DNA of 64,000 bases from positions 3,970 to 67,969 of the forward strand of contig JBCCWF010000001.1 of the NCBI GenBank assembly GCA_039194035.1, read 5' to 3'. The translations under genes were made by a program, and so were the position numbers. A model generated the notes under the pieces. The model had not been told where the DNA came from. It saw only the letters and a list, made by a program, of their open reading frames with translations, and ran no database searches. Shown one piece after another: positions 12,510 through 41,014 of this stretch. The stretch is from Cyanobacteria bacterium P01_E01_bin.6 (GTDB taxonomy: Bacteria; Cyanobacteriota; Cyanobacteriia; CAKZMO01). How positions within the stretch are numbered: the stretch's first letter is position 1; each line of letters starts with the position of its first letter.

Positions 12510-12565
12510 CGCGTTTTAGTTCCTGGTTCAATTCCCTGAGTCAATCGCCTGGGTTATTCCCAGCC

Positions 12566-16146: not shown

Positions 16147-16180
16147 GGGGTTTGGGGGAGTGAAGGATTTAGATGACTGG

Positions 16181-16250: not shown

Positions 16251-16258
16251 GATCGCCG

Positions 16259-17338: not shown

Positions 17339-17389
17339 AAAATCCTTAATCTAAAATCCTTCAATCACAAGAGCGCTGAACCATCGCCA

Positions 17390-19570
17390 TTACATCCTCA
17401 CAAATCGGATAAAATGGCCTGACCGCAAGTCTCGGTCATACCAAGAACAAATGAGGCCATTGGCTCCGGGGTAGACGGAGCCAGGAGAAATTTGCCGAAC
17501 CCATTGTCCCTGGTGATGACGTAGCTCAAACAACTGCACGGTGCCCAGATACTGAACGCCTGGAGCCTGTTGAATCAGAGCAATCACATCAGATGGGTAA
17601 ACCGGACGCCCAAACGACCAACCCGTGCCGTCTTCCCCGCCAGTAATGGGATTCAAAAAGCGGTAGAGGGTCGCCAGCAACGATTGCTGCACCGCATCCT
17701 GTGCCTGGGGAGATTGGTAGGCTGGGGCGAGACCAATTTCGGCTCGCACCGATACGCCGACATAGGTTGGCTGCTCCAACACCACCTGGGTTCCCAGGAG
17801 CTTTCGTTCATCGAGATAGGTTGTCAGGTGAGTTCGGAGGCTGGGGGTGAGGATGAACTGATCCGGTGCAATCCCCTGTCCTTGGGTGACGCCTGTGGTG
17901 GGAACCTGGGGAACCACCAAAACCTTGACAGTTCCAGCTTCCATAGCGGACTGGGCCGACAGGCATCGTGCCTGGGCGATCGCCCCTTCGCCGCCTCGCA
18001 TCACCAAGGCCTCAAAATCTTCGGGAGTGACGGCGCGATCGCGGCTCCGCAATAGCTTTGGCACCCGCATGACCGCTTGTTCGAGGGATTCTGCATCGAC
18101 TCCGTAGCGAGTTGGGTCATGGTTCACCACCTCAGCCACGTAGGGAATCGCGGTTTTCAGAACCCGCACGGTTCCCGCCTGAACATTGCCCCGCACACCA
18201 CCACCTGTCCGATAGCTCACCATCCGCAGCACCGATCCTCGGGGCGGAATCGCGCCATATTGATGTTCGGTTGATACGGCGGGTGCGGTTGCCGTTTGGC
18301 CATAGTCTTGAATTTGGAGACGCACCTGAGTCGCATTCGGCCCGTGAGATGGTTCTCGAATACGGGGGCCAAACTGCACCGTGCCTGCTTGTGAATCGAG
18401 TACGTAATGATGACTTTCTGGAGTGGAATCGGCAAAATCAGCAACTTCATGCCATTGCTGGGGCAATCCGTCAGGTGGCTGTACTTCTAGATACTCGCCA
18501 TCTCGGCGGGGCAACACAGGATGATTCAATAGCTGAAACGTCTGATTAGACGTACCATCGCTGATGCCTAACAATTCATCGCGAATCAGGGTGGCTTGGC
18601 TGGCGCGAACCGAGCCGCCAATGGCTCTCACGGAGAGTCCGACAATGCGAGGCGATCGGCTGTAGGCAGGTTGAGCAGGTGTTGACGGAATACACACACA
18701 CCGAATCCATCGCCCCCGATAGGTTGAAAACGCAGACACAGGCCAATGCTGCGGTAGATGGAGAACCACATCCCCTCCCTGGAGAGGATCCAGGCCTTCT
18801 TCGGTGATCGTGCTAAAGCTAAATCCTTGAGTTCCGTCATCCTCTTCTGTTCGCAGAATGGATGTCCAGGCTGTGCCATCCCATGCTTCCCATCGACGGG
18901 GAGGTGCACTTGGATTAATGCCAGTGGCCGTGGCAGCTTCTCCTTTGACCGTGAGAGAAAGAACGTTGCCATCTAATACTTCATCCGGTTCAAAGACCAA
19001 ATAAAACGCGTTGCCCGATGCGGGTTGATCATCAAAGAGGAGTTGTTCTGGCCCATCCCATCCCCCATCCGGATCTTGAATCCAGCGATTGGTGAGGCGA
19101 TCTCGCAGGGTTTGGGGCACCTCTTCAGTAAGGGAAGAGGTAAGAAAATGCTGGAGATGGGGCTTCCCGACCCGCAATGGACGATCGGTTGTAAATACCA
19201 CGGCCTCTTCTGTTTCCGTGCGCATGGTTGCGACCTCAATTCCGGCTGGAATCATGTAGGGTTCGGGCAGTACCGTATTGAGATAGAAGGTAAGATCGGC
19301 TTGGGCCGGAAGCGGAGGCTGTAGACGAATGCCTAAGAGTTCCAGAAATGAGACATATTGACGGCGTGGTACCTGGTTAAACCGTAGGAGCATTTGCTCC
19401 GTCATCCATCCAAACAGTTCAATCAGCGTCATGCCTGGATCGCTGGGATTGAAATTTGTCCACTCTGGGCAATAGCGAGGAATCCGTAACCGAGATTCGA
19501 CCATCAAGTCATCGAGCTTGCGGTCATCCAGATCCGATTTAGGCAGATTGGGCAAAAAATTGAATTCCAT
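17390..19570 (-). CDS. baseplate J-like protein (gp6-like; TIGR02243 putative baseplate assembly protein)
   Basis: The N-terminus (DLDDRKLDDLMVESRLRIPRYCPEWTNFNPSDPGMTLIELFGWMTEQMLLRFNQVPRRQYVSFLELLGIRLQPP) is a near-textbook match to the TIGR02243/baseplate_J N-terminal signature. Length 726 aa. Confidence 0.75.
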   Translation of the reverse strand: MEFNFLPNLPKSDLDDRKLDDLMVESRLRIPRYCPEWTNFNPSDPGMTLIELFGWMTEQMLLRFNQVPRRQYVSFLELLGIRLQPPLPAQADLTFYLNTVLPEPYMIPAGIEVATMRTETEEAVVFTTDRPLRVGKPHLQHFLTSSLTEEVPQTLRDRLTNRWIQDPDGGWDGPEQLLFDDQPASGNAFYLVFEPDEVLDGNVLSLTVKGEAATATGINPSAPPRRWEAWDGTAWTSILRTEEDDGTQGFSFSTITEEGLDPLQGGDVVLHLPQHWPVSAFSTYRGRWIRCVCIPSTPAQPAYSRSPRIVGLSVRAIGGSVRASQATLIRDELLGISDGTSNQTFQLLNHPVLPRRDGEYLEVQPPDGLPQQWHEVADFADSTPESHHYVLDSQAGTVQFGPRIREPSHGPNATQVRLQIQDYGQTATAPAVSTEHQYGAIPPRGSVLRMVSYRTGGGVRGNVQAGTVRVLKTAIPYVAEVVNHDPTRYGVDAESLEQAVMRVPKLLRSRDRAVTPEDFEALVMRGGEGAIAQARCLSAQSAMEAGTVKVLVVPQVPTTGVTQGQGIAPDQFILTPSLRTHLTTYLDERKLLGTQVVLEQPTYVGVSVRAEIGLAPAYQSPQAQDAVQQSLLATLYRFLNPITGGEDGTGWSFGRPVYPSDVIALIQQAPGVQYLGTVQLFELRHHQGQWVRQISPGSVYPGANGLICSWYDRDLRSGHFIRFVRM

Positions 19571-24173: not shown

Positions 24174-24641
24174 TTATCGTTGACCAACTTTGAGTGCGTC
24201 AATAAAGAGTGAAAGATAATGATTGACTAACGCCGCTTCTCCAGGAATCATTTGCTCAGTGACAACAGTCTTCATCGCAATATAAAATGCAACCGACTGC
24301 TCTTCCTTGTGCAAAGAAAATAGTATGTTTTGCATCCAAAGGATAAGTTCTTCAATAAATCCATTCTCATCATCTTTAAGAATAGAGAGCGCCACATAGC
24401 GAAGAACATGACTCATGTCACGTTTACAGATATCGCTGTGTTGCTGGATAACCTGCCGATTAGACGGCATCAAGCTCCGGAGAGTCTTTATAATGAGCGT
24501 GTCTTTGTTCTCCTGCAAATAGCGATAGGTGCTGATTCGTTGTGTATAACTGTTAACAAAATTTTGAACAGTAGATAATTCCGAATCTTGTAGATACCGA
24601 CCCTCAGCATTGCTAAGTTCCTTAAAGATTATATTGCTCAT
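24174..24641 (-). CDS. phycobiliprotein-family (allophycocyanin-like) protein, orphan
   Basis: Pattern AEGRYLQDSELSTVQNFV ... DICKRDMSHVLRYVALSIL parallels phycocyanin (AADSQGRFLSSTELQ ... KCARDIGYYLRIVTYCLV), including the bilin-attachment Cys context. ~155 aa. Confidence 0.45.
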   Translation of the reverse strand: MSNIIFKELSNAEGRYLQDSELSTVQNFVNSYTQRISTYRYLQENKDTLIIKTLRSLMPSNRQVIQQHSDICKRDMSHVLRYVALSILKDDENGFIEELILWMQNILFSLHKEEQSVAFYIAMKTVVTEQMIPGEAALVNHYLSLFIDALKVGQR

Positions 24642-26816: not shown

Positions 26817-28634
26817 ATGGTTTCGTCTGCCTATCGCTTTCTCGGCTCAATTAAGCTTGCTGTGCCTCTCTTGGCTGCCATCGTTGGCATTCTGATTTGG
26901 GCAACACTTTATGAGTCAACTGTTGGGTCTGCCCTCGTCCAGCAAGAGGTTTACAAAAGCCCTTGGTTTGGAGCGTTGATGTTTATGCTGGCCATGAACT
27001 TGGGCGTGTCAGCCATTAGTCGATACCCCTGGAAAGGCACTCGAAAGGTCGGCTTTGCCCTAGCGCATTTGGGACTCATTGTTCTGATTGCAGGCTCAGC
27101 AGCGGTCATTCACCTGAGTGTAGAAGGCATGATGCTGCTTCGAACCGACCAAGGCGCAAATAGCCTAGTCCGTGTGGACGGGGATTTATTAGACGTGGTC
27201 ACTCCTGATGGGCAGTCTGTCCAGACAGATCTGATGATCAAGCCTGACAACTCAATCATTCCGTCTCGCGTTGCAGGGTTGACTATTCTAGGCTACGAGG
27301 AAAATACGATTCGCACGGTCAGTTTTGAGGAAGGAGAAACGGTCGAAAATCCCGCCGTACGCATCAGTCTCAAGAGCGATCGCATGGGGCAGCTGACGGA
27401 GCGCTGGCTGGCGGCATCTCCCTCCATGTATCAGCAAGAAAATCTTGGCCCCGTGCGGCTTGAATTGTTACGGGTCAGTTCTGACGACGTTCTCCAGCAC
27501 TATTTGGCTGCGCCTGATGCACCCACTGCTGCAGGGCGATTTGGGACGCTGACCGTGACGGTTGATGGGAATGGGCGATCGCTCGACATTGAATCGTTTT
27601 TACAGACGCCTGTGGAGGTCACGCCAGACATCACCCTCACGGTGATGGAGTTTTGGCCAGACTTCCGGTTAGATGCTCAAAATCAACCTGCTACAGCATC
27701 ACAGCAGTTGCGGAACCCCGCTGTACAGCTTGATGTTTCCCGTGGAGAGAATCAAGAGCGTTGGTTTGTTTTTGCCAGTAGTGAGTTCGATCCTGTTCGC
27801 ACGGTCGTATCCGGATCAAGCCTGGAAAATATCGATATTCAATATGCGGCACAACCTCAGCGCCAGCAAAATCTCTTCCAGGTCATTGCTGCGCCTAACG
27901 AAAAGTTCTTCTATACAGCCCAATCATCGAAAGCGTTTACGTCTGGATCGTTGGACGTAGGTCAACCCATCTCCCCTGGCTGGGTTGATTTTCAGATCAC
28001 CCTGGAGGACGTGGTGTCCCATGCCGTGCCCAATCGTCAGGTGATTCCCGTAGACGCCAATGAAATCCAGGGTTCTCCATCGCTCCAGGTCGCCACACCC
28101 GATGGCGAAACGCATTGGTTGACCTGGGCAGAACCGACCACTCTGTCTACTCCGTCTGGGGATTACTTCGCGGCGTTTAGCCCCAAAATGCTGCAGTTGC
28201 CCTTTGCAGTCGCGCTTGATGATTTCATCGTGGAACGCAATGAGGGAAGTGAGTCTGTGGCCATGTGGACGAGTCAGATTCAGATCCAAGATGCTCACCG
28301 AGGAGAACTGAGTGAGCGACGAGTATGGATGAATCACCCAACCTGGTATCAGGGATGGAAAATGGCTCAGGCCTCCTGGAATCCTGGGGATTTACGCCAA
28401 TCAACCTTACAGGTGAAACGGGAACCATGGTGGGTCACCGCCCTGACGTGGAGCGGTTCTTTACTGGTTGTGATGGGTATTGTGGTGATGTTCTATGGCG
28501 CTTCTGTGGTGAAAGCGGTGAATAAGGTCCTGCCAACGACTTCTACTGATCCATCGATGAACGAAAAGACTCAGGGAAATGCAGAGGGCGATCGCCCTCC
28601 AGTTCCCGCTCCAGCATTGATTACCCAAGACTAG
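26817..28634 (+). CDS. ccsB: cytochrome c biogenesis protein CcsB/Ccs1 (ResB family)
   Basis: N-terminus YRFLGSIKLAVPLLAAIVGILIWATLYES is the ResB/Ccs1 signature. Large soluble central domain, C-terminal TM. 605 aa. Confidence 0.8.
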   Translation: MVSSAYRFLGSIKLAVPLLAAIVGILIWATLYESTVGSALVQQEVYKSPWFGALMFMLAMNLGVSAISRYPWKGTRKVGFALAHLGLIVLIAGSAAVIHLSVEGMMLLRTDQGANSLVRVDGDLLDVVTPDGQSVQTDLMIKPDNSIIPSRVAGLTILGYEENTIRTVSFEEGETVENPAVRISLKSDRMGQLTERWLAASPSMYQQENLGPVRLELLRVSSDDVLQHYLAAPDAPTAAGRFGTLTVTVDGNGRSLDIESFLQTPVEVTPDITLTVMEFWPDFRLDAQNQPATASQQLRNPAVQLDVSRGENQERWFVFASSEFDPVRTVVSGSSLENIDIQYAAQPQRQQNLFQVIAAPNEKFFYTAQSSKAFTSGSLDVGQPISPGWVDFQITLEDVVSHAVPNRQVIPVDANEIQGSPSLQVATPDGETHWLTWAEPTTLSTPSGDYFAAFSPKMLQLPFAVALDDFIVERNEGSESVAMWTSQIQIQDAHRGELSERRVWMNHPTWYQGWKMAQASWNPGDLRQSTLQVKREPWWVTALTWSGSLLVVMGIVVMFYGASVVKAVNKVLPTTSTDPSMNEKTQGNAEGDRPPVPAPALITQD

Positions 28635-28761
28635 ATTCTGTCGCTTTCGAAGGAATCACGATGCTTCCGACTCTCTGTACTTCGTAATGAGTAAGATACT
28701 GAACCAGACGATTCTGGTGCTATCGAGATAGAATCCGCCCATTTGATTACCTCTTTTAAAC

Positions 28762-30507
28762 ATGAAACCTTGGAAATTTCTGATCGGTCTGCTCCTCGGA
28801 GCGCTCATTCTCATTCTCCCGTTGAGCCAATTTCAGCCCGATCCGCTGGATTCGCTCAAAACACTGACTGTTCAGCTTGACGGACGAAAGAAGCCACTGG
28901 ATACCGTGGCACTCGAAACCGTTGAAAAACTCCATGGGTCTACCCACTACAAACAGGCAGATGGAGAGACTCTGAACTATCTGCAAACGTATCTTTCAAT
29001 GGAAGTGAATGATCGGGATTGGAATCAAGAACCGTTCATTTTGTTTAGCTATCGCCCTCTCAAAGAAGAGATTGGCCTCGAACCAGAGCGTAAATACTTT
29101 AGCTTCCGTGAATTATTAAATTCTGAGCCACTGGCTCGGGTCGTCAATGATGCACACCGCAGGCAACTTTCCGATGAGGATCTAACCCGCAATGAGCGCG
29201 AAGCGCTCACGATTGAGGACCGCGTTACGCTCTTGTTCAGAACCGTGGGCACAAGTAGCTTGCCGCTGGTGCCCCATCCAGATGATGTGAAAGGAGCCTG
29301 GGCAACCATCCCCGATGCTCCCAAGCTCTATGAACCTGACCAGGTTGCTCCAGTGATGGCTCAGTTTGAGCTACTCAAACGAGCCTATCGAATGAGCCGC
29401 GATCATTCGGATGCGGTTGGTATGATGGCCTCAGAACTTCATCAAGGGTTAGCCGCTCTGAGTCCAGCCGTATATCCAGGCGATCGCACCATGGCTCGGG
29501 AAGTGTATTACAACGGTTTCCACCCCTTTGCAAAAGCTTGGATGCTTTATGGCGCAGCTTTTCTCGTGATGTTAGGTGCGCTTTGGGTCAAATCATTGGA
29601 ACGTTTTGGGCTTTATTGGACATCCCTCGGTTTATTTGTGGCAGGTATTGGCCTCCAAACCTACGGCTTTTTCTTACGGATGCAAATTGCGGGACGCCCT
29701 CCGGTCACCAACATGTATGAGTCGGTGGTCTGGGTCGGACTTGGCGTGGCGGCGATCGCCCTTCTGTTTGAACTGACCTCGCGCGCGAAGTACTACCTAC
29801 TGGCGGCGGCTCCTCTATCGGTGCTCTGTCTGGTGCTTGCCGATCGGTTGCCAGCGGTTCTCGACCCGAGCATTTCTCCATTAGTTCCAGTGCTGCGCGA
29901 TAACTTCTGGCTTAGTATCCATGTCCCGACCATTACTCTCGGATATGCAAGCTTCGCCCTCGCCATGGGGCTGGGGCATGTCGCCCTTGGTCATTATTTG
30001 TTTGCACCAGCGGCAAAAGAGCGCATTCGCACCATTGCCCAATTCAACTATCGCGTTCTCCAAGTTGGCGTGCTGTTGCTGACCACTGGCATCATCCTCG
30101 GGGGTATCTGGGCTCACTTCTCGTGGGGACGCTTTTGGGGCTGGGATCCAAAAGAGACCTGGGCACTCATTGCCCTGATGTGTTATCTCGTTCCCTTGCA
30201 TGGACGATTGGTCGGGTGGATTAGCAACTTTGGTATTACCGTCACCAGTGTGGTGTCATTTAATGCCGTGCTGATGGCATGGTACGGCGTCAACTTTGTG
30301 TTGGGAACAGGCCTACACAGCTATGGATTTAGCACGGGTGGATCAGAGCTGATCGTTGGTGCATTTGTCGGCCTCGACTTGTTATTTGTCTTGGTTGCAG
30401 CCATCCGTCATAAGCAATGGTGGCCTCAGTTCGCGTCATCCCAAGGTAATGCGGTAGAGCCATCTCTAACTGCTGAGTCTATTCCGAGTGCGTCAGAATC
30501 TGCTTAA
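28762..30507 (+). CDS. ccsA: cytochrome c-type biogenesis protein CcsA (heme lyase subunit) with ~250-aa N-terminal periplasmic extension
   Basis: WWD domain [29 protein letters not shown]. Multiple TM helices with conserved His. N-terminal signal/TM plus extra domain. 581 aa. Confidence 0.8.
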   Translation: MKPWKFLIGLLLGALILILPLSQFQPDPLDSLKTLTVQLDGRKKPLDTVALETVEKLHGSTHYKQADGETLNYLQTYLSMEVNDRDWNQEPFILFSYRPLKEEIGLEPERKYFSFRELLNSEPLARVVNDAHRRQLSDEDLTRNEREALTIEDRVTLLFRTVGTSSLPLVPHPDDVKGAWATIPDAPKLYEPDQVAPVMAQFELLKRAYRMSRDHSDAVGMMASELHQGLAALSPAVYPGDRTMAREVYYNGFHPFAKAWMLYGAAFLVMLGALWVKSLERFGLYWTSLGLFVAGIGLQTYGFFLRMQIAGRPPVTNMYESVVWVGLGVAAIALLFELTSRAKYYLLAAAPLSVLCLVLADRLPAVLDPSISPLVPVLRDNFWLSIHVPTITLGYASFALAMGLGHVALGHYLFAPAAKERIRTIAQFNYRVLQVGVLLLTTGIILGGIWAHFSWGRFWGWDPKETWALIALMCYLVPLHGRLVGWISNFGITVTSVVSFNAVLMAWYGVNFVLGTGLHSYGFSTGGSELIVGAFVGLDLLFVLVAAIRHKQWWPQFASSQGNAVEPSLTAESIPSASESA

Positions 30508-30518
30508 GGAGGAAACCG

Positions 30519-31001
30519 ATGGATCGTCGTAAATTTTTGAACTGGGTGGGTTTGGGAGCCTTGGCAACATCGCTTCCGGTGGCGATCGCCGCTTGCCAAT
30601 CCGAGTCATCATCCCCAGCCGATACAGCATCAGATTCTCCAGAATCATCTGCTGCGTCATCTGAGGTGGGGACGGTTCGACCCGACGGCTCATTTGTTGT
30701 GGGTACTGTTGCCGATTTAGATGAAAATGGAGTCCTCAAAGGCCGACCAGCGTTTTCCTCTGGAGCTGTTCTTGTGATTCGTGCTCCCGACGCTGCAGAT
30801 ACCCTTTATGTCGTGGACTCCCTTTGTACCCATCAGGGTTGCTCTGTTGATTGGGAATCATCAGCTTCTGAATTTGCTTGTCCGTGTCATGGCTCAACTT
30901 TTTCAGCGGATGGCAGCGTGACGACTGGTCCGGCAACGGATCCTCTGGCTACATTCCAAGCCACGATTGATGGTGAGCTTGTCTTGGTTCAACCAAGCTA
31001 G
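30519..31001 (+). CDS. Rieske [2Fe-2S] protein with Tat signal and probable lipobox (periplasmic lipoprotein)
   Basis: MDRRKFLNWVGLGALATSLPVAIAAC (twin-Arg plus lipobox-like IAAC). Ser-rich linker. Rieske boxes CTHQGC ... CPCHGS. Confidence 0.8.
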   Translation: MDRRKFLNWVGLGALATSLPVAIAACQSESSSPADTASDSPESSAASSEVGTVRPDGSFVVGTVADLDENGVLKGRPAFSSGAVLVIRAPDAADTLYVVDSLCTHQGCSVDWESSASEFACPCHGSTFSADGSVTTGPATDPLATFQATIDGELVLVQPS

Positions 31002-31011
31002 TCAGTAAATG

Positions 31012-31104
31012 GCCATTATTAAACGTGCTGTTCCAACCCCTATGCCGCCTTCGCAGTGGGCGGCATAGGGGTTGGGGATTTGGTTTCATTCTGTCCAGGT
31101 ACGT
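31012..31104. repeat. MITE-like repeat family A copy 3 (hairpin variant CCCCTATGCCGCC / GGCGGCATAGGGG)
   Basis: TTAAACGTGCTGTTCCAA...GGTTTCATTCTGTCCAGGTAC. Confidence 0.6.
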
Positions 31105-31189
31105 AGTGTGTTGTCTCGTATTGTGTCTCTTATCGAGCAGCCTATTTTCCATTCGTTGTCTCATTCAGCTCATTTATTAGCCGTTCATC

Positions 31190-31522
31190 ATGGATGATAA
31201 AAAACAGCTTTTAGCTCAAACAATGGCGTTGTTAATGTCAACAACACCTGAAACAACACTGGGTCGATTTTTGAATTTTTGCCTTGCTACGAAAGTTGAA
31301 ACGGCGATCGCCCACAAGACTCCCTTTGAAATAGCTGAAGAATTAATGGAGCATCCTGAAAAACTCTCCCAATGGATCTCTGAAACAATTGATGGCGATG
31401 ATGATTATACAGTTGATGAAATGGTTGCCCTTTCAGATATGCACATCCAAAATCCTCATACTTTCATGGCTCAATTAATAGAAGAATTGAATCAAATTCA
31501 GTTGGACGACGTAAATCCTTAA
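31190..31522 (+). CDS. hypothetical acidic protein
   Basis: ORF only. Confidence 0.3.
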   Translation: MDDKKQLLAQTMALLMSTTPETTLGRFLNFCLATKVETAIAHKTPFEIAEELMEHPEKLSQWISETIDGDDDYTVDEMVALSDMHIQNPHTFMAQLIEELNQIQLDDVNP

Positions 31523-31650
31523 ATCACTGTTCAATTACTTAGGTAATGAGAGCTTTCTACTTGCTCCCCATCAATCATGCGGCGATGCCAGGATGCTTTC
31601 CTAAAGCGACCTTGTAGATGCGTATTCTTTTTACTTGTGATTTTTCATTG

Positions 31651-31690
31651 AGCGATCGCCATAAACAATTAAATGTTTGTGGCGATCGCT
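31651..31690. promoter_or_regulatory. near-perfect palindrome built around two HIP1 sites (AGCGATCGCCATAAACAATTAAATGTTTGTGGCGATCGCT), ~300 nt upstream of the globin gene
   Basis: Seen in the sequence. Candidate operator. Confidence 0.3.
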
Positions 31691-31979
31691 TTCTTCCTAT
31701 TGGTTAAAGGGAAAGGCATGTTATGTCAAAAAGGTGAGAAATGATTAAAGATCTGACATCGATTCGCATCGATGCGGTTTATGCAACTCGTGCAAGCAAG
31801 TTCTGCATGACCTGCTGGTATTTGTATCAGAAAATGCAAAACAGCTCATTTTTTTTTCGTAATCTCTCATCTTGATAGCAGTGTTTTTCATCCATACACT
31901 TGCCAGAAAAGCATCTTTTATTTGCGTGAAATTTGCCTCAAAAAAGTGCTTCTCTATGTGTCGCCAAGGAGTCTAGGTC

Positions 31980-33014
31980 ATGTCTCTTCAAGTTGAACTT
32001 CTCGAAACAAGTTTCGAGAAAGTTAAGCCCCATGCTAATGAATTCGTTACGAGTTTTTATGACAATTTGTTCGCTGACTACCCTGCAGCAAAACCCCTGT
32101 TTGAGCACACCGATATGCCCAAACAAATACAGCAGCTTAAGGGGGGGCTCGTCATGGTGGTGGAGAATCTGCGCAACCCTGAAGTGCTCACCAAAGCGCT
32201 TGGTGGACTCGGCGCTCGCCATGTCAAGTATGGTGCGCTGCCTGACCATTACCCCCTAGTCGGCAACAGTCTGCTCAAAACCTTTGATCAGTACCTCAAG
32301 GAAGACTGGACGCCCGAGGTTAAGCAGGCTTGGGTTGACGCCTACGGCGCGATCACCGCGCTGATGCTCGAAGGCGCTGATTACTCTGAGGAACAGGTGG
32401 ATCTCTCTGCGGCTCCCCCTGCGACAGCCGCAGCGGCTGTCGACGAACCTGCCGAAGAGTCAGGCGGGTTGAAGGTTGAACTGTTAGAAGAAAGTTTTGG
32501 CAAGGTTGCGCCCCAGGCCGACGAATTTGTGGCAAGCTTCTACGACAATCTGTTCACCGACTATCCGGCATCCAAGCCACTGTTTGAGCATACCGATATG
32601 CCCAAGCAAATGCAGCAGCTCAAGGGTGGTTTGGTCATGGTGATTCAAAATCTGCGCAAGCCTGAGGTGCTCAGCAAGGCTCTGGGAGGGCTGGGTGCAC
32701 GACACGTAAAATATGGTGCGTTGCCAGAGCACTATCCACTCGTTGGGAACAGCCTGCTCAAGACATTTGGTCAGTATCTCAAAGAAGATTGGACCCCTGA
32801 GGTGAAGGGCGCGTGGGTCGATGCCTATGGTGCCATTACTGCGCTCATGTTGGAAGGAGCTGATTATTCCAAGGAAGACGTTCAGCTTGAGACTCCAGTT
32901 GCTGCGGTTGCCACTGCTGCTCCGCAGGAAGATGACGGGTCCAATGTTGCGCCTATTGTCGGTGGTCTTGTGGGTGGCGGCATTCTAATTGCTCTTTTGC
33001 TTATTCTTCTTTAA
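31980..33014 (+). CDS. tandem two-domain globin (bacterial haemoglobin-like) with C-terminal hydrophobic membrane anchor
   Basis: Two ~150-aa repeats ~80% identical to each other. Each resembles Vitreoscilla Hb (FYDNLFADYPAAKPLFEHTDM ... LGARHVKYGALPDHYPLVGNSLLKTF ... AWVDAYGAITALML). C-terminal tail PIVGGLVGGGILIALLLILL. Confidence 0.7.
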   Translation: MSLQVELLETSFEKVKPHANEFVTSFYDNLFADYPAAKPLFEHTDMPKQIQQLKGGLVMVVENLRNPEVLTKALGGLGARHVKYGALPDHYPLVGNSLLKTFDQYLKEDWTPEVKQAWVDAYGAITALMLEGADYSEEQVDLSAAPPATAAAAVDEPAEESGGLKVELLEESFGKVAPQADEFVASFYDNLFTDYPASKPLFEHTDMPKQMQQLKGGLVMVIQNLRKPEVLSKALGGLGARHVKYGALPEHYPLVGNSLLKTFGQYLKEDWTPEVKGAWVDAYGAITALMLEGADYSKEDVQLETPVAAVATAAPQEDDGSNVAPIVGGLVGGGILIALLLILL

Positions 33015-33031
33015 GACAACAGTGATAAGTT

Positions 33032-33685
33032 ATGGCGTTCAATTTTGGAAGAATGCTTAGACGAAAATCGTTCTTCAGTCTTCAAACGGCCATTATTGCT
33101 GCTGGCATTATTTTACTGGTTGGGCTTGTTGGGGTCTTCGCGCTGGAAACGGATCAGCAGACGATCTTCTTACCTGGTGAAACATCTGAAGGCCATTTTT
33201 TGTTTGAAGCATCCTGTGCATCCTGTCATGAGGGGTTTAAGCCGGTGACGAACGAGACATGCATGCGTTGTCATGAAGCCGAAATGGCGGACGACAAGCA
33301 TGGCCCCAAGAAGTTTCGTGATCCTCGTTGGGCTGCTGACCTCGAAAAGCTTGAAGTGTTGACCTGTACAACTTGCCACAACGAACATGTGCATATGTTT
33401 GGGCGGGGTGTTCATCTTCAGCCAGATTTATGTATGGCTTGTCATCAGGGCATCATTGAGGGCGATATGCAGAGCCATGACGGATTTACTCCTGATGGCT
33501 GCTGGACAGCAGGGTGCCATAACTTCCACGATCACCGTTCGATTTCCACTGGGTTCCTCGCTGACACGCTCGATCAGCCTCCGATGTTGCCTGTTCAGGA
33601 GCTGCCAATCCTGGACGTGATAACAACACTGGACTCAGCACCCGACGCTGATTTGTGGGATGAGTTTTTAGGAGGTGAATCATGA
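33032..33685 (+). CDS. membrane-anchored pentaheme c-type cytochrome (four CxxCH + one CX4CH)
   Basis: N-terminal TM IIAAGIILLVGLVGVFAL. Heme motifs CASCHE, CMRCHE, CTTCHN, CMACHQ and CWTAGCH. Confidence 0.7.
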   Translation: MAFNFGRMLRRKSFFSLQTAIIAAGIILLVGLVGVFALETDQQTIFLPGETSEGHFLFEASCASCHEGFKPVTNETCMRCHEAEMADDKHGPKKFRDPRWAADLEKLEVLTCTTCHNEHVHMFGRGVHLQPDLCMACHQGIIEGDMQSHDGFTPDGCWTAGCHNFHDHRSISTGFLADTLDQPPMLPVQELPILDVITTLDSAPDADLWDEFLGGES

Positions 33686-34485
33686 GGCGATCGCTCGTTC
33701 TCTTGGTTGCCATCCTGATGGGATTGGTCGGATATATGCTGGGACATCCACAGCCAGTCTTCGCTCATGCGTCTGAGGCTGACCTTCAGGAGATTCAAAC
33801 ACTCTGGGAAGGCAGTGTTCATGCTCTGGCTGATGTGAATTGCTCAAGTTGTCATCAGCAGGATGAGACGAATGCATTTATTGCTCATCCTGATCATGAA
33901 AGCTGTCAATCCTGTCATGACGCACAGGTCGATACTTTCTTACTCGGGAAACACGGGATCCGGTTGTTCGAAGGGATGAGTCCACTGACTCCTGCCATGG
34001 CTCGATTGCCGATGAAGGCTGACGCGCACAATCGCCAAATGACCTGCAATACTTGCCATGATGTTCATTCGGTCAATACCGTGCAAGCCTCTGTTGACTC
34101 GTGTCTGACCTGCCATAACGATACACACTCGTTGAACTATGAAAATTCCAGACACGCTGAGCTGTTTATGGCGGATCAAGGCTTGCCTCGCCCGTCAAGC
34201 CAGGCCGTCAGTTGTTCGACCTGCCATATGCCCCGCCAAGATTTGGGTAGCCCGAGCAGCCCCCAAGTTGTGGTAAATCACAACAACACGTTTACCCTAT
34301 TACCGCGCGATCGCATGGTCATTGAAGTCTGTATGAACTGCCATGGCGTTGAGTATAGCTACAACAGTATTTTTGACGATGATTTGGTAGAGGCAAATTT
34401 CGACAAGCCTCCTAGCCTATCGCTAGAGACCTTTGACTTGGTGCGTACCTTTGAAAAACAGCGTACCAGCCAGGATAGCGAATAA
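33682..34485 (+). CDS. periplasmic hexaheme c-type cytochrome
   Basis: Signal peptide. CSSCH, CQSCH, CNTCH, CLTCH, CSTCH, CMNCH. Start overlaps the upstream stop (ATGA), indicating translational coupling. Confidence 0.75.
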   Translation: MRRSLVLLVAILMGLVGYMLGHPQPVFAHASEADLQEIQTLWEGSVHALADVNCSSCHQQDETNAFIAHPDHESCQSCHDAQVDTFLLGKHGIRLFEGMSPLTPAMARLPMKADAHNRQMTCNTCHDVHSVNTVQASVDSCLTCHNDTHSLNYENSRHAELFMADQGLPRPSSQAVSCSTCHMPRQDLGSPSSPQVVVNHNNTFTLLPRDRMVIEVCMNCHGVEYSYNSIFDDDLVEANFDKPPSLSLETFDLVRTFEKQRTSQDSE

Positions 34486-34610
34486 CGGCAGTCGTCAATT
34501 CCAGTGTTCGCATCAACGAACTTTCTCACACGTTCACGCCCTCAAATCCTGTTATGTCAGGTACGTGATTATCACCGATACAACAGTCTTACTCTCTAGA
34601 CAAGGAGTTC

Positions 34611-35276
34611 ATGTTTATGAAAACTATCAATCAATGGATGGATGCGATTCGCACCCGGACAGTCGCATTCATTGCGATTATCCTAGCGGTTGCAGTTACT
34701 GCAATTTCTTGTAGTGGTAGTCCTGCTCCCGACGCAGGAGAAACCGTTAGCGGCATCTCTCCCGAAATCGTTGTGGATTATATTCATACGGTTGCTGCAT
34801 CCGATCGGACGGCTTACACCAAGCATGTTGTGGCTCGTCTGAAAACATTGGAAGGCAACGATAAGCCAGATGGTGTTGTTCCAGCTGAAGCCACCGAAGC
34901 TTGGCAGCAAACCGACGGTATTCCACTCCCCGCTCAGATGTTCCGACTCGGAGCAGAGCTAGCGTCAGAAGGTGGCGATTTTACCATTGGTCTCATTTCC
35001 CCTTGGAATATTAATGACAGCCAGGCTCCGAAGGGAGAATTTGAAGAAGTTGGGATGCAGGAAGTGATTGACACTGGTGAACCCTACAAAGGGTATCAAG
35101 AAATTGGTGGTCAACAATACTATTCTGCAATTTACCCCGACCCTGCGGTTGCCGATGCCTGTGTCAGCTGTCACAACAATCATCCGACCCATCAGGAACG
35201 GTATCCAGACAAAGTGTTCGAACTGAATGATGTGATGGGTGGCGTTGTCATCAACCTTCCTCTAGAGGGTGCTTAA
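34611..35276 (+). CDS. c-type monoheme protein, Tll0287/DUF3365-like PAS-type heme sensor domain; N-terminal anchor or lipoprotein signal
   Basis: Single CVSCHNNH motif near the C-terminus, as in Tll0287-like proteins. ~220 aa. N-terminal hydrophobic segment ending ISCSG. Confidence 0.5.
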   Translation: MFMKTINQWMDAIRTRTVAFIAIILAVAVTAISCSGSPAPDAGETVSGISPEIVVDYIHTVAASDRTAYTKHVVARLKTLEGNDKPDGVVPAEATEAWQQTDGIPLPAQMFRLGAELASEGGDFTIGLISPWNINDSQAPKGEFEEVGMQEVIDTGEPYKGYQEIGGQQYYSAIYPDPAVADACVSCHNNHPTHQERYPDKVFELNDVMGGVVINLPLEGA

Positions 35277-35451
35277 GCGAGGTACGGGGTTCTAGTTTCT
35301 CGCTGGGGTCGTGAAGTGTTCATGTCGAACATTTCACGACCCCAAGTCGCTAGACACTAGGTAAATGATTAATTTTGATGTCTGCCTGTAACGTGCCCTT
35401 AACGTTATTAAGCATCGACCGAGTTCTTCTTTTGCTCGATTTCTCACTTGT

Positions 35452-36279
35452 TTGTTCCGACACGCTTATCATCCAAGACCCATGAAACCCAGGTTTTCAA
35501 CGCTCATTCTCCTAACTCTTTTAACGGCCATTATTTTGGTTCCGTTTGCCCTAAGCAGCACCTATCTGCCGCTGTTGCGCGATCGCGCATTTACGCTATA
35601 CGAGCTGTTTCGGACTGACCTGTATAAGCAAATTACGGGGTTTGTACTGTTGGCGCTTGTGCTCGCAGAAATGGGCTTAGCGCTCAGGAAGCGAGGCCGG
35701 AAGTGGAAGGTTAAATTGCCAGGAACGATGATGCTTTGGAGAAGTGTTCACATTTTCTTGGGCGTCTTCTTAATTGCAGCCGTTTTGGTTCATACCATCG
35801 GCTCAACTGGGTTGAATTTCAATGCGGTTTTTTTATGGGTGTTTTTTGGTGTGGCGCTGACTGCTCTGATTGGCGTGGTGGCAGAGACCGGTATTTTGGA
35901 AACCGATGTTGTTCAGGTGTTACGACTCCGGTTCTTGCGCCGCGATGGATTCGTTAAGCCAGCACCTGCTGGTTCCGTCGCCAAGCTGACTGGAGAGATG
36001 GCGGCGGCCCATTCACCTGACCAGTTCGTCGGCAGCGTATCGGCCTCTCCTGCAACCGTGTCCATTGGGCAACCTAGTATGGTGGCTGGCAACCCTGAAC
36101 CCGAGCCGATTTTCACCCCCGAAGGAGCCGCAAAACTTCCGTGGGTCATTGCAGCGATGTCAAAAGGCCCTATTATTCGAGGGCTTCGGGCGATTTGGCT
36201 GTCGTCTCATATTTTCCTTGTGAGTGTGTTTACAATCATGCTCGGCTTCCATATTTTCCTCGCGTTTTATTATCAATAG
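35452..36279 (+). CDS. polytopic membrane protein with conserved His in TM helices (possible b-type heme or ferric-reductase-like membrane subunit)
   Basis: TM helices containing WRSVHIFLGV ... LVHTIG and SSHIFLVS ... FHIFLAFY. Confidence 0.35.
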   Translation: MFRHAYHPRPMKPRFSTLILLTLLTAIILVPFALSSTYLPLLRDRAFTLYELFRTDLYKQITGFVLLALVLAEMGLALRKRGRKWKVKLPGTMMLWRSVHIFLGVFLIAAVLVHTIGSTGLNFNAVFLWVFFGVALTALIGVVAETGILETDVVQVLRLRFLRRDGFVKPAPAGSVAKLTGEMAAAHSPDQFVGSVSASPATVSIGQPSMVAGNPEPEPIFTPEGAAKLPWVIAAMSKGPIIRGLRAIWLSSHIFLVSVFTIMLGFHIFLAFYYQ

Positions 36280-36297
36280 GGTAAGAGGCTTCAACCT

Positions 36298-36774
36298 ATG
36301 GCTTCTGGACGTAGTGAACCGCCAGCAATGCGACGCATTGGTGTCACGTTTATTGTTCTGATTGGGTTTGCAATTGCAACCTTTTTTCTAACCCGCCCAG
36401 TCACAGCCTCGTCAAGCATGTCCCCTGTCTCTGGCCTGGTGATGCTGAAAGCCATGGCACAGGCATCCGTTCCCTATGAAGAGGCGATCGCCAGCGGTAA
36501 ACCCACCTTCATGGAGTTCTACGCAGACTGGTGCACGACTTGTCAGTCCATGGCATTAACGGTTGCGGAGCTGCACACTCACTATGGGGCAGATCTGAAT
36601 TTTGTCATGCTGAATATTGACGACCCCAAATGGCGATCGCAAGTTGAACAATTTCATGTCGGTGGAGTCCCTGAGTATTTCTTACTGGACAACGACCAAT
36701 CAATACATCGCTCGTTTATTGGTCGGGTTCCTTACGGGATTATGGCTCAATCCGTAAATAATCTAATAAATTAA
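36298..36774 (+). CDS. thioredoxin-like thiol:disulfide oxidoreductase (CcsX/ResA/TlpA-like, membrane-anchored)
   Basis: N-terminal TM then the thioredoxin fold with WCTTCQ (CxxC) active site. Confidence 0.65.
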   Translation: MASGRSEPPAMRRIGVTFIVLIGFAIATFFLTRPVTASSSMSPVSGLVMLKAMAQASVPYEEAIASGKPTFMEFYADWCTTCQSMALTVAELHTHYGADLNFVMLNIDDPKWRSQVEQFHVGGVPEYFLLDNDQSIHRSFIGRVPYGIMAQSVNNLIN

Positions 36775-37634: not shown

Positions 37635-38552
37635 TTGACTGTTATGCAACCGATGACTTCGAAAGCACTCATCCGCCTTGTGGGAGTGTTGCTCATGACA
37701 CTCCTCCCGTATGGATGTAGCACTGTTGGCAAAATGGCATCACTTCCAAGCGTGGTTGCTCAACGGTCAGATACCGTTGATGTCAGCGATCGCATTCAAC
37801 CCTTTGCCCAGGTAGATGTGGTGTATCTCGGGGAGACCCATGACAGCACTGCTGATCATGATGCTCAGCTACAGATTGTTCAGGCACTCTACGCCCAAAA
37901 TCCAGAGATGGCGATCGCTCTGGAAATGTTTCAACACCCTTTCCAGGAAAGTCTGGATAACTATATCAGTGGCACTATCGACGAAGAAACGCTTCGCGAA
38001 CAAACTCAATATGACTTGCGATGGGGATTTCCATGGGAATACTACGCTCCGATACTGCGTTTTGCGAGAGAGCATCAAATTCCGTTGCTTGCTCTCAATG
38101 CTCCATCCGAAGTTGTGAGTAAGATTGCCCGCGAAGGACTCGACAGTTTAAGCGAATCAGAGCAACAGGTCATTCCTCCCCGGTCAGAAATCCGAACTGA
38201 CAACGAGGGCTACCGTGAATACGTTGGGGCCGTGTTTGGACATGCGCACCACAGTGGCCATTCTGGCATGAGTTTTGAGAATTTTTTCTCGGCTCAAGTG
38301 GTTTGGGATGAAACGATGGCTGAACAGATTACTGCGTTTCTTACCCGTGAGCCTGGCCATCAAGTGGTGGTGCTGGCGGGTCAAGGCCATGTGATTTACG
38401 GCTATGGCATTCCAGATCGAGTGGCTCGTCGGTTGGGTGACTCCATCGAGCAATATACGATCTTGCTCAATCCCATCGGGGAGTTCCTTGATGAAGGAGA
38501 AGGGGCGATCGCTGATTCCTTTTGGTTCAGTGAAAATGGACAGAAGCCATAA
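37635..38552 (+). CDS. ChaN-family (Tiki/haem-binding uptake, PF04187-like) lipoprotein
   Basis: Lipobox LLPYGCST. Conserved VVYLGETHDSTADHDAQLQIVQAL ... ALEMF and GHAHHSG motifs typical of ChaN/DUF399. Confidence 0.6.
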   Translation: MTVMQPMTSKALIRLVGVLLMTLLPYGCSTVGKMASLPSVVAQRSDTVDVSDRIQPFAQVDVVYLGETHDSTADHDAQLQIVQALYAQNPEMAIALEMFQHPFQESLDNYISGTIDEETLREQTQYDLRWGFPWEYYAPILRFAREHQIPLLALNAPSEVVSKIAREGLDSLSESEQQVIPPRSEIRTDNEGYREYVGAVFGHAHHSGHSGMSFENFFSAQVVWDETMAEQITAFLTREPGHQVVVLAGQGHVIYGYGIPDRVARRLGDSIEQYTILLNPIGEFLDEGEGAIADSFWFSENGQKP

Positions 38553-39916: not shown

Positions 39917-41014
39917 TTGGGAGAGATACGAATGGATCTGGTCACACTTCAAGGTTGGCTTGACAATGCGTCCTTTGCCGTCATGTTCGCAACGATGTTG
40001 ATCTACTGGGTTAGCGCTGCATTTCCTGGTCTGTCTGTGCTGAGCAGCTTGGGAACAACTGGGATGGCGATCGCCAACTTGTTGATAGCAGCCCTCCTCA
40101 CCGCTCGCTGGATAGAAGGCGGATACTTCCCATTGAGCAATTTGTATGAGTCCCTATTTTTTGTGGCCTGGGGCATCACGGCGGTTCATTTGCTGGCAGA
40201 GCGCATGAGCCAGAGCCGTTTGGTTGGGACGGTTACAGCGCCTGTTGTCATGGGAATTACAGCATTTGCAGCGCTCTCGTTGCCCGACACAATGCAGACA
40301 TCAGAGCCACTGGTGCCTGCTCTCAAGTCCAATTGGTTGATGATGCATGTCAGCGTGATGCTCATCAGCTATGCGGCTCTGATGGTTGGGTCTCTGATGG
40401 CGATCGCCTTTTTGGTGATCACACGAGGCCAAGCGGTTGAGCTAAAAGGGAGTTCGGTGGGAACAGGAAGCTTCCGAACTAGACGGGAAAAGTTGAAACC
40501 GATTCAATTACCAGAAGATGGAGAGATGTCGTCATCCATTCCCAGTGAGTCCTTGCTGTCGTCCCCGGCCCAAGCTTTTTCTCCCTCTTCAGGGGCCACA
40601 GCTGTCTTAGCGACATCTCCCGTGGCAACTGCTGCGAGCAAGCAGACCTCCATTCCTTCCCCTATAGCGGCTGCACCCCTATCTCCCCAGCGATTGACCT
40701 TGGCAGATACCTTGGACAACATTAGCTATCGCATCATTGGATTAGGATTTCCACTCCTCACCATCGGCATTATTGCCGGAGCGGTTTGGGCCAATGAAGC
40801 GTGGGGGTCTTACTGGAGCTGGGATCCAAAGGAAACATGGGCGCTCATTACGTGGTTAGTGTTTGCGGCCTATCTCCATGCTCGCATTACCCGAGGATGG
40901 CAGGGACGTCGTCCTGCGATCCTTGCCGCGTCAGGATTTTTTGTGGTGTGGATTTGCTATCTCGGCGTCAATATTCTGGGCAAGGGACTGCACAGCTATG
41001 GCTGGTTTTTCTAG
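39917..41014 (+). CDS. ccsA: CcsA-family cytochrome c biogenesis protein, second paralogue, with Ser/Pro/Ala-rich insertion
   Basis: WWD domain [29 protein letters not shown]. Internal low-complexity insert [36 protein letters not shown]. Confidence 0.7.

Follow-up and report, generated by a model that had tools for sequence, protein, structure and literature searches.

In this work we analysed a stretch of 64,000 nucleotides (the window) of Cyanobacteria bacterium P01_E01_bin.6 (GenBank assembly GCA_039194035.1, contig JBCCWF010000001.1), which harbours at positions 26,817 to 36,774 a cluster of genes for multihaem cytochromes, a tandem globin and a cytochrome c synthase. The data largely establish that the part of the cluster led by the globin gene is the cyanobacterial version of a cross-phylum redox module made up of four parts, namely a cytochrome b, eleven c-haems, a haem-Cache protein and a globin. 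The module may be a transmembrane electron relay that serves the detoxification of nitric oxide (NO) and nitrogen oxides and is equipped with its own maturation set in cyanobacteria, a reading to which we assign a probability of about one half. Among the conceivable roles, one in nitrogen-oxide metabolism is the most likely because the homologous module sits inside nitrate-assimilation operons elsewhere.

The anatomy of the cluster as outlined in a preliminary description of the window was recovered. All ten open reading frames (ORFs) were present on the forward strand at the expected positions of the ORF listing, and the families were confirmed with Pfam and NCBIfam, while topologies were taken from a hydropathy scan and inspection of the N-termini. 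Frameshifts had been named beforehand as a possible source of spurious CXXCH motifs. Such artefacts are excluded because the haem motifs are invariant and the same proteins occur in independent assemblies. Two read-set assemblies made independently of each other contained identical proteins, as did the NCBI metagenome-assembled genome of Cyanobacteria bacterium P01_E01_bin.6; the orthologues are equally long, and all eleven c-haem motifs of the two multihaem cytochromes, including one of the type CX4CH, were invariant in 28 to 30 homologues of 60-85% identity. The motif counts are thus genuine.

The eleven haems are distributed over two proteins. The gene c5 (33,032-33,685, + strand) encodes 217 amino acids (aa) with an N-terminal transmembrane (TM) segment, four CXXCH motifs and a fifth site, CWTAGCH, which belongs to the CX4CH motifs that are standard in the cytochrome c3 family. 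Its ATGA overlap connects it to c6 (33,682-34,485, + strand), whose product of 267 aa possesses a cleavable signal peptide and six CXXCH motifs. Both proteins matched PF14537 (Cytochrom_c3_2) above the threshold of 25, c5 with 28.3 bits and c6 with 43.1 bits. Apart from the haem motifs, His55, His90, His119, His149, His166 and His168 of c5 were invariant in 28 homologues, as were six further His residues of c6 (positions 47, 91, 129, 149, 158 and 200) in a set of 30. Since c5 thus offers at least six and c6 exactly six additional invariant His residues, all eleven haems can probably be coordinated by two His ligands, which would make the pair a wire rather than an enzyme. In other phyla both halves reside on one polypeptide of 400-480 aa. 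c5 aligned to residues ~15-190 of such proteins, whose C-terminal half corresponds to c6, and because the fused homologues align end to end, we regard c5 and c6 as a split form of the TM-anchored undecahaem cytochrome of these phyla.

The preliminary description had likened the cluster to quinol dehydrogenase modules of the NapC/NrfH type. Membership of c5 in this family had to be abandoned: there was no PF03264 (Cytochrom_NNT) match at E<=0.01, the protein has five haem sites, and only the topology of the TM anchor is in common. What the pair has in common with NrfH-NrfA and NapC is the translational coupling of a small, TM-anchored multihaem protein with a soluble one, and c6 shows local similarity to relevant enzymes. 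Searches of the PDB with the c6 profile yielded the Kuenenia HAO-like octahaem protein 6h5l (E 6e-8, significant, local only) and the haem 2-3 region of NrfA (E 1e-4), the latter by way of the pattern C-x-T-C-H-x-P ... LPR-x-x-M ... C-x-x-C-H-x-VEY-x-YN. No CXXCK motif was found in c6, and with six CXXCH motifs and similarity that is only local it does not appear to have the catalytic five-coordinate haem (CXXCK or a Tyr-crosslinked P460) and the full core of five or eight haems that mark NrfA, HAO and ONR. The c5 profile gave CXXCH-local noise only against the PDB. The module thus differs from NrfH-NrfA in that c5 stands outside the NapC/NirT family and that CXXCK or an obvious five-coordinate catalytic haem is absent; moreover, a separate cytochrome b, and not c5, is likely to be the entry point in the membrane.

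This cytochrome b is the predicted product of the gene at 35,452-36,279 (+ strand; 275 aa, five TM segments). Gene calls on an independent assembly of the same sequence (L001) placed its start at an internal ATG at window position 35,482, which is the likely start. The preliminary description had listed a His-rich membrane protein at this place. The membrane protein was confirmed and has four invariant His residues, and we go further in reading it as a di-haem cytochrome b. The residues are arranged as H100-x13-H114 in TM3 and H253-x13-H267 in TM5, and both helices are predicted, from the hydropathy segments and the distribution of positive charges, to run from the cytoplasm to the periplasm. 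H-x13-H pairs are typical of cytochrome b. Two such pairs in parallel TM helices led us to predict two haems stacked across the bilayer. Matches below the threshold pointed in the same direction: among 36 members, 15 hit DUF4405, seven Ni_hydr_CYTB and two Ferric_reduct, all of which are families of two-haem membrane cytochromes. The best scores were 22.4 bits (cut-off 30.1) and 17.6 bits (cut-off 26.7), so that none reached its threshold; neither was there a match to the cytochrome b families PF00033 and PF00032, nor a homologue in the PDB when the profile of the membrane protein was used.

Other phyla have fusion proteins in whose C-terminal TM domain the same four His residues recur with 100% conservation, and whose N-terminal part comprises the domains Pyr_redox_2, Rubredoxin_C and Fer2_BFD. 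By its domains this part is a reductase with NAD(P)H, flavin adenine dinucleotide (FAD) and a [2Fe-2S] cluster, akin to the N-terminal region of NirB. The fusion identifies the partner of the cytochrome b as a cytoplasmic NAD(P)H-linked reductase. The proteobacterial form, in which electrons would pass from NAD(P)H via flavin and two stacked b haems to an outside acceptor, follows the logic of carriers such as NADPH oxidases and proteins with a ferric reductase domain. Further likenesses are the His pairs on TM3 and TM5 and the weak matches to Ferric_reduct, DUF4405 and Ni_hydr_CYTB. In contrast to these carriers, the flavoprotein of the module has a BFD [2Fe-2S] domain and belongs to the NirB/rubredoxin-reductase type, not to the FNR type, its acceptor would be a multihaem cytochrome instead of O2 or Fe(III), no family threshold is reached, and the cyanobacterial protein has no flavin domain.

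The twelfth c-haem belongs to a Tll0287-like lipoprotein of 221 aa (34,611-35,276, + strand), for which the gene calls on L001 selected an internal ATG at window position 34,617. It matched PF11845 with 53.5 bits (cut-off 24.1) and contains a lipobox and the haem motif CVSCH. C184-x-x-C187-H188 was invariant in 73 orthologues and in the non-cyanobacterial neighbours, and so were the lipobox Cys34, His191, Met110 and Met209. The gene always adjoins c6 or the gene of the fused undecahaem cytochrome (c11), in cyanobacteria as well as in other phyla. With Tll0287 of Thermosynechococcus (PDB 5B82) and the sCache_haem proteins (PMC12889525) the protein shares PF11845, the strict CXXCH within the Cache insert, the extracytoplasmic location and the stand-alone architecture. 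It differs from Tll0287 in that the axial Cys is not conserved, as no Cys beyond those of the lipobox and CXXCH was conserved in the orthologues, and in that this subfamily always stands beside an undecahaem cytochrome. Met110, Met209 and His191 are the only conserved candidates for a sixth ligand. As the Cache haem has no Cys ligand of the Tll0287 kind, we propose that its sixth ligand is exchangeable. Tight binding of NO is known from members of the sCache_haem family without the axial Cys (PMC12889525).

The first gene of the module (31,980-33,014, + strand) encodes a protein of 344 aa with two globin domains (PF00042, E 7.7e-36), no signal peptide and a C-terminal TM segment at residues 326-344. 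With NF009805 (Hmp) it scored 141 bits, far from the cut-off of 432, the match being restricted to the globin part. No reductase domain was detected in it with Pfam and NCBIfam; the TM tail stands in its place. His81 and His242 as proximal ligands are conserved, as are Tyr27/Tyr188 and Tyr91/Tyr252. From an alignment by eye to Vitreoscilla haemoglobin, we take these Tyr residues to occupy positions B10 and G5, along with Gln E7. The protein is a tandem 3-on-3 globin of the flavohaemoglobin type (Hmp/Vgb/Cgb), not a true flavohaemoglobin. Since it has a C-terminal tail anchor and no signal peptide, its domains are predicted to be cytoplasmic, and its inclusion in a periplasmic pathway, as put forward in the preliminary description, was rejected. 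A globin with one to five tandem domains is the first gene of the operon in ~76 cyanobacterial loci, and a hydrophobic C-terminal tail was present in 69 of 95 globin ORFs of this family in the loci, a count that includes a soluble second paralogue and partial ORFs. The globins of the module outside cyanobacteria are soluble single domains.

Two further observations concern the cyanobacterial globins. The number of tandem domains in the first globin gene varies from 1 to about 5, and that of locus L054, for example, encodes 784 aa. In addition, ~15 of the loci L003-L082 contain the second, soluble paralogue of ~175 aa with a conserved C-terminal extension (ELTFYEWLDLYGESSP...HFKYG), e.g., L012:13359-13886, L013:13292-13822 and L037:13776-14303. 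Its gene follows that of the membrane protein and mostly precedes the thioredoxin gene, in some loci it comes after it; it is absent from the window.

A globin next to a Tll0287-like protein might also form a device for redox and gas sensing, in which the globin detects cytoplasmic O2 or NO and the Tll0287-like haem responds to the periplasmic redox state or NO, while the cytochromes only poise the sensors. Globin-coupled sensors exist. Within the Tll0287/sCache_haem family there are NO sensors that form fusions with kinases and methyl-accepting chemotaxis proteins (MCPs) (PMC12889525). However, across 160 loci no output domain (kinase, GGDEF, MCP or helix-turn-helix) was fused to any component or conserved beside it. 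Eleven wire haems and a dedicated synthase would be a heavy investment for a sensor, and the NAD(P)H reductase of the proteobacterial form implies turnover. We therefore consider a sensing device very improbable. The designation of the stand-alone protein as a Tll0287-like sensor in the preliminary description is doubtful too, as it has neither an output domain nor the axial Cys of Tll0287.

To determine the distribution of the module, one genome per GTDB species was scanned with the c5 profile, and the synteny of the best 80 loci (flanks of up to 10 kb per side) was derived from tblastn matches and ORF clustering. A relative of c5 was encoded in at least 213 cyanobacterial species genomes, and the best 80 loci were all cyanobacterial. 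Among the carriers are Halomicronema, Leptolyngbya sp. Heron Island J, Moorena producens 3L, Adonisia, Coleofasciculus, Prochloron, Acaryochloris, Geitlerinema BBD, Xenococcaceae, Limnothrix and Prochlorothrix; a c6 homologue (S7335_5184) was present in Synechococcus sp. PCC 7335. Essentially every sufficiently long locus of the 80 has kept the order globin, c5, c6, Tll0287-like protein, membrane protein, in some cases the second globin, thioredoxin and, in some, a ChaN-like lipoprotein. In the window the last-mentioned gene (Cofac_haem_bdg; PF04187, E 3e-75) is located at 37,635-38,552 (+ strand), beyond the interval covered by the preliminary description. Genes for a ResB-like protein, a long CcsA and a Rieske protein lie alongside in most loci, usually divergent from the globin gene; only in the window and a few other loci are they co-oriented with the globin operon. 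A pentapeptide-repeat protein of ~300 aa flanks the cluster in 46 of the 80 cyanobacterial loci (L005-L082); it is not found beside the cluster in the window.

A wide occurrence of the cluster, already annotated as a known pathway, had been named beforehand as a finding that would refute the preliminary description. The cluster turned out to be widespread, and yet it is not annotated as any known pathway, the NCBI annotation of its genes being only "cytochrome c3 family protein" or "hypothetical". A single NCBI name, "NrfA- nitrite reduction protein", is suggestive but unverified. Taken singly, the parts all fall into known families or superfamilies. Their combination was not found in the open-access literature, and, as the preliminary description had supposed, no published account of the cluster was found in open-access full-text papers and preprints, the subscription literature lying outside this search.

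Outside cyanobacteria the family is large. When the c5 profile was run against 1.84 billion representative proteins, 508 clusters were retrieved, many of which consist of 400-480-aa proteins with a c5-like N-terminal half (TM anchor, C-x4-CH-N-[YF]-H-D-N) fused to a c6-like C-terminal half. With one fused undecahaem protein as query, 3966 matches at E<=1e-10 were obtained in Gammaproteobacteria, Burkholderiales and others; a tblastn search of the PLSDB plasmids with the fused protein gave no match. A metagenome scan disclosed at least 434 loci. Nearly all of the long ones exhibited the order membrane protein homologue, undecahaem cytochrome, Tll0287-like protein, sometimes a monohaem cytochrome c, and globin, the first of these being the C-terminal domain of the ~660-aa reductase fusion. 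Locus L083, whose undecahaem protein is closest (54% identity) to Thermoanaerobaculia (Acidobacteriota) P0243, has a stand-alone b protein and the order c11, Tll0287-like protein, b. Since some loci contain no globin, the globin is an accessory, and the core of the module consists of the reductase-b protein, c11 and the Tll0287-like protein. Variant architectures were also seen: L092 and L094 encode reductase-b fusions of 860 aa in the order Tll0287-like protein, fusion, c11, and in L117 and L157 the c11 protein is elongated to 660 aa.

The genes surrounding the module in Proteobacteria link it to nitrate assimilation. According to precomputed Pfam matches, in L163 and L165 the module is flanked by NasT on one side and by NrtABC on the other, and the cluster also includes NirBD and NasA. 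One of the two contexts reads NasA, CobA, NasT, the module (reductase-b, c11, Tll0287-like protein, cytochrome c, globin), NrtA, NrtB, NrtC, NirB and NirD; in the other, NasT is followed by reductase-b, c11, Tll0287-like protein and globin, then by NrtABC and, further on, by NirB, NirD and NasA. NasT and/or NrtABC were directly adjacent to the module in 16 of 32 long metagenome loci. In two Burkholderiales loci an ORF of 47 aa (L163:7877-8020 and L164:308-451) lies between NasT and the reductase-b fusion and overlaps the start of the latter; it could be a leader peptide or an ANTAR-target region. For the cyanobacterial operon, nitrogen control is hinted at by sites of the NtcA type. Of 70 regions of 400 nt preceding the globin gene (L003-L082; the loci are mutually related and the counts not independent), 32 contained GTA-N8-TAC, as against 3.1 +/- 1.6 in dinucleotide shuffles and 5.9 +/- 2.2 in random windows of the same loci.

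A precedent for the association of a globin with nitrate assimilation is known from Bradyrhizobium, where a NasT-controlled nas operon encodes the single-domain haemoglobin Bjgb and the FAD reductase Flp, which detoxify NO arising from nitrate assimilation (PMC4724949). The narK-bjgb-flp-nasC genes resemble the module in that an Hmp/Vgb-like single-domain globin without its own reductase is encoded together with a separate flavin-dependent NAD(P)H reductase, and the proteobacterial form of the module likewise belongs to a NasT-controlled nitrate-assimilation cluster. In the module this reductase has the domains Pyr_redox_2 and Fer2_BFD. In contrast to Bradyrhizobium, which has no equivalent, the reductase of the module is fused to a di-haem b domain and coupled to eleven periplasmic c-haems and the haem-Cache protein, and the cyanobacterial form has no flavoprotein and a tandem, membrane-anchored globin. 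The combination of a globin, an NAD(P)H flavoprotein and nas genes under NasT was seen in the proteobacterial homologues, not in the cyanobacterial loci within their flanks.

On this basis we propose that electrons would cross the membrane via the two b haems and then pass along the eleven-haem wire to the Cache haem, the putative binding site of a small nitrogen oxide such as NO or, possibly, nitrite or hydroxylamine. In the cytoplasm, the globin could dioxygenate or reduce NO and would be re-reduced by this membrane relay through the reductase or b unit. In Proteobacteria the electron input would be the NAD(P)H/FAD/[2Fe-2S] domain fused to the cytochrome b. This domain is missing in cyanobacteria and in L083, and in cyanobacteria the membrane-tethered globin might take its electrons from the cytochrome b, which would fit both the tether and the absence of a flavoprotein; candidate donors are ferredoxin, plastoquinol or the Rieske protein. 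The physiological role would be the protection from NO and related by-products of nitrate and nitrite reduction on both sides of the membrane. As anticipated in the preliminary description, c5, c6 and the Tll0287-like protein bear features of export or anchoring (signal peptide, TM anchor or lipobox), and so do the Rieske protein and the thioredoxin. Of the functions considered in that description, nitrogen-oxide handling is supported by the NasT-controlled clusters of Proteobacteria; extracellular electron transfer is not, there being no conserved outer-membrane component nearby. A more far-reaching version, namely that the module is an undescribed nitrogen-oxide machinery common to several phyla, which exports cytoplasmic reducing power (from NAD(P)H via the fused flavoprotein or, in cyanobacteria, from another donor) through the di-haem b protein and the eleven-haem wire to a haem-Cache protein acting as a new type of periplasmic NO, nitrite or hydroxylamine reductase while the globin removes cytoplasmic NO, is put forward only tentatively; we hold it to be less likely than not, though its chance is substantial.

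A wire of this kind could also lead out of the cell. In that case the b haems and the eleven-haem wire would be a conduit to Fe(III), S0 or another external acceptor, used for dark anaerobic respiration or reductive iron uptake, and iron or haem would be the substrate of the ChaN-like protein. With eleven haems that are likely bis-His the module does resemble a wire, the cytochromes showed weak Pfam and NCBIfam similarity to those of the MtrC/DmsE type, a haem/iron lipoprotein of the ChaN type is linked, and the fused NAD(P)H reductase of Proteobacteria implies an outward flow. Furthermore, judged from record titles, most carriers are cyanobacteria of benthic, mat-forming or marine life style, which are exposed to anoxia at night. 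However, no outer-membrane porin, outer-membrane cytochrome or export component was conserved in 80 cyanobacterial and 80 other loci, the proteobacterial neighbours are genes for nitrate assimilation and not for metal reduction, and a cytoplasmic globin that binds NO or O2 has no obvious part in metal reduction. Electron export is therefore an unlikely function. The undecahaem uet cluster of Tenderiales is a different system, with an extracellular UetJ and a porin (bioRxiv 10.1101/2022.05.06.490989).

The genes upstream of the globin operon provide the module with what appears to be a cytochrome c synthase of its own. The ResB-like protein (26,817-28,634, + strand; 605 aa) matched PF05140 with 58.5 bits (cut-off 24.6), the match being limited to residues 457-525. 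It aligned to residues 215-326 and 15-119 of the CcsBA fusions 7s9y and 25vk, i.e., to their N-terminal part. Three TM segments were predicted, and His84 and His99, in or near TM2, as well as His507 are conserved in 53 orthologues; the gene adjoins the module in 54 of the 80 cyanobacterial loci. The long CcsA (28,762-30,507, + strand; 581 aa) is composed of TM1, a periplasmic domain of ~230 aa and the WWD haem-handling core (PF01578 at residues 316-514, 103.5 bits), in which WGRFWGWD and His387, His406, His452, His480 and His519 were invariant in 47 orthologues. Its residues 38-548 align in one stretch to 291-801 of the CcsBA of B. thetaiotaomicron (E 4e-50) and to 407-925 of that of Helicobacter (E 3e-40). 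As ResB and the long CcsA together align along the CcsBA fusions, they constitute a split CcsBA-type synthase; the N-terminal extension ascribed to CcsA is the normal middle domain of this type.

A housekeeping CcsA gene (39,917-41,014, + strand), not a member of the cluster, lies ~3 kb downstream. It scored 354.8 bits with TIGR03144, above the equivalog cut-off of 187.6, the long CcsA 153.8 bits, and the two are ~40% identical across the core. The score below the cut-off argues that the long CcsA is a divergent paralogue of the housekeeping protein, and a second, divergent synthase pair beside the multihaem genes, as noted in the preliminary description, was thereby corroborated. Linkage of the housekeeping gene to the cluster was rejected, as it is present in this window only: in the flanks of the other 80 loci a second CcsA copy was not found, all CcsA2 matches residing inside the long CcsA gene. 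The last of the ten ORFs (36,298-36,774, + strand) encodes a thioredoxin of 158 aa with an N-terminal TM anchor and the active-site sequence WCTTC (PF00085, 51.8 bits; weak ResA and DsbE matches). W78-C79-x-x-C82 was invariant in 60 orthologues and the gene was found in 59 loci; we predict that the protein supplies reductant to apocytochrome cysteines in the manner of CcsX/ResA. The ChaN-like lipoprotein, with an invariant lipobox Cys28, was present in 22 loci and in most of these directly followed the thioredoxin. ResB and the long CcsA, the thioredoxin and the ChaN-like protein would most plausibly be a maturation set of the module's own for the twelve c-haems; apart from these the host produces just a few simple cytochromes c.

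Dedicated System II synthases have been recognised before: Wolinella uses NrfI and CcsA1 for CXXCK and CX15CH, respectively. The uet cluster of Tenderiales also carries ccsAB (bioRxiv 10.1101/2022.05.06.490989). In common with these systems, a second CcsB/CcsA set stands here beside multihaem genes, in addition to a housekeeping copy, and the alignments of ResB and the long CcsA follow the fused CcsBA type. It is different that the synthase is split and not fused, and its dedication is predicted from the genes. That the CX4CH motif is the cause of the dedicated lyase, as had been suspected, is unlikely and was rejected, since the motif is standard in the cytochrome c3 family and is conserved in homologues of other phyla whose loci are devoid of adjacent ccs genes. 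For this reason, the additional synthase may be needed not for the motif but for capacity, for a compartment or for processivity on multihaem proteins.

The third gene of this unit (30,519-31,001, + strand; 160 aa) encodes a Rieske [2Fe-2S] protein (PF00355) with a twin-arginine translocation (Tat) signal. The Tat motif RRKF, the lipobox AAC with Cys26 and the cluster motifs CTHxGC...CPCHG were invariant in 40 orthologues, and the gene follows that of the long CcsA in 39 loci. Its best PDB match, spanning the whole soluble domain, was Synechocystis PetC3 (5cxm, E 6.8e-19), and an anammox Rieske protein came second. We conclude that it is in all likelihood a PetC3-type lipoprotein, given that it shares with PetC3 of Synechocystis the Tat signal, the lipobox and the cluster-binding motifs; it differs from it by its genetic linkage to ResB and the long CcsA. 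PetC3 has been described as a plasma-membrane lipoprotein and is present in Synechocystis and PCC 7002, and its mutants were reported to disturb nitrogen-related metabolism (PMC10172866). The linkage of a PetC-like Rieske protein with CTHxGC/CPCHG in 39 loci, its anammox match and the H-x13-H pairs of the b protein would be compatible with a bc-like complex, in which the Rieske and the b protein oxidise plastoquinol and pass electrons to c5 and c6, as do the multihaem Rieske/cytochrome b complexes of anammox bacteria. However, the Rieske gene is part of the unit that encodes the maturation proteins, which is separate and usually divergent, and PetC3 occurs, as just mentioned, in Synechocystis and PCC 7002. 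No Rieske homologue was found beside the module in the non-cyanobacterial metagenome loci, the Rieske-domain genes of L163 and L165 being of the NirD type. The b protein, moreover, has only five TM segments and, as stated above, no match to the cytochrome b families, and other phyla wire it to an NAD(P)H flavoprotein and not to quinol. All this makes a bc-like complex quite unlikely.

Several points weigh against the proposed relay for nitrogen-oxide detoxification. The cyanobacterial loci contain no conserved nitrate-assimilation gene, flavoprotein or NasT within their flanks, so that the nitrogen link is transferred from distant homologues of 35-45% identity, and in the window itself no exact-consensus GTA-N8-TAC site was found upstream of the globin gene. 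The globin is missing from some proteobacterial loci. Wires of bis-His haems leave only the Cache haem as a possible catalytic site, and the one stand-alone sCache_haem member studied, from P. putida, is a redox protein and not an NO binder (PMC12889525). AlphaFold2 models of c5 (alignment of 28 sequences) and c6 (30 sequences) were unusable, with predicted local distance difference test (pLDDT) scores of 46.5 and 51.9, respectively, and lend no support to the haem packing of the relay; a Foldseek search of the PDB with the low-confidence c6 model produced noise only (best E 1.8). The c-haems may lie either in the periplasm or in the thylakoid lumen, and the role of the Rieske protein is not explained by the model. 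Finally, neither a characterised family member nor an annotation that implies a function was found in the open-access literature and the NCBI annotation.

The two groups of genes probably form separate transcription units. Downstream of the Rieske gene a terminator-like hairpin (31,031-31,077, + strand) with a 20-bp stem and a T-run ends the ResB-CcsA-Rieske unit (26,817-31,001), and a promoter-like site was identified at 31,872-31,900, between this hairpin and the globin gene. Together they suggest a second unit that comprises 31,980-36,774 and the ChaN-like gene, consistent with the divergent orientation of the ResB-CcsA-Rieske unit and the globin operon in most genomes. Between the units lies a small ORF, orf110 (31,190-31,522, + strand), with no family match in Pfam and NCBIfam. 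In tblastn searches of the cyanobacterial loci it had a homologue only in L003 and in the window's own assembly; orf110 is a lineage-specific insert outside the conserved cluster. It is flanked by two long hairpins, the one at 31,031-31,077 and another at 31,650-31,691 with an 18-bp stem containing GCGATCGC, and the region 31,031-31,691 looks as if it had been inserted between the conserved units. That the cluster is an island gained by horizontal transfer and recognisable by its base composition was considered and rejected, as its GC content (0.46-0.52) is like that of the rest of the window.

Some other regions of the window attracted our attention. ORFs on the reverse strand with matches to Baseplate_J (17,390-19,570) and Tail_P2_I (16,259-17,338) suggest a baseplate of a phage-tail-like particle or a contractile injection system. 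This region (14,647-19,570, together with 5,914-14,485, both on the reverse strand) adjoins WD40, TPR and dCache-HAMP-cNMP-binding proteins and two large ORFs without a family match, and its GC content of 0.53-0.56 is higher than the window average. At 24,174-24,641 (reverse strand) an isolated ORF of 155 aa belongs to the phycobilisome protein family (PF00502, E 6e-20); it is flanked by an F420/NADP oxidoreductase-like gene and a gene for an ABC substrate-binding protein. A protein of 721 aa with calcium-binding repeats of the RTX type is encoded at 47,518-49,683 (forward strand).

In textbooks, cyanobacteria possess only a few c-cytochromes, each with a single haem, and a single System II synthase. 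Compared with this picture, at least 213 cyanobacterial species carry a module of twelve c-haems, b haems and a globin along with a second synthase of the CcsBA type. If the more far-reaching reading given above is true, this would be the first multihaem-cytochrome pathway described in cyanobacteria, and one with its own cytochrome c synthase. The family to which it belongs numbers thousands of members, is embedded in proteobacterial nitrate-assimilation operons and has apparently never been studied. It bears on the question how nitrate-assimilating cells dispose of NO and other by-products, on the reductase that serves single-domain globins, and on the roles of stand-alone Tll0287/sCache_haem proteins and of PetC3. 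Moreover, the two System II synthases within one cell offer a natural test case for the selection of substrates between them.

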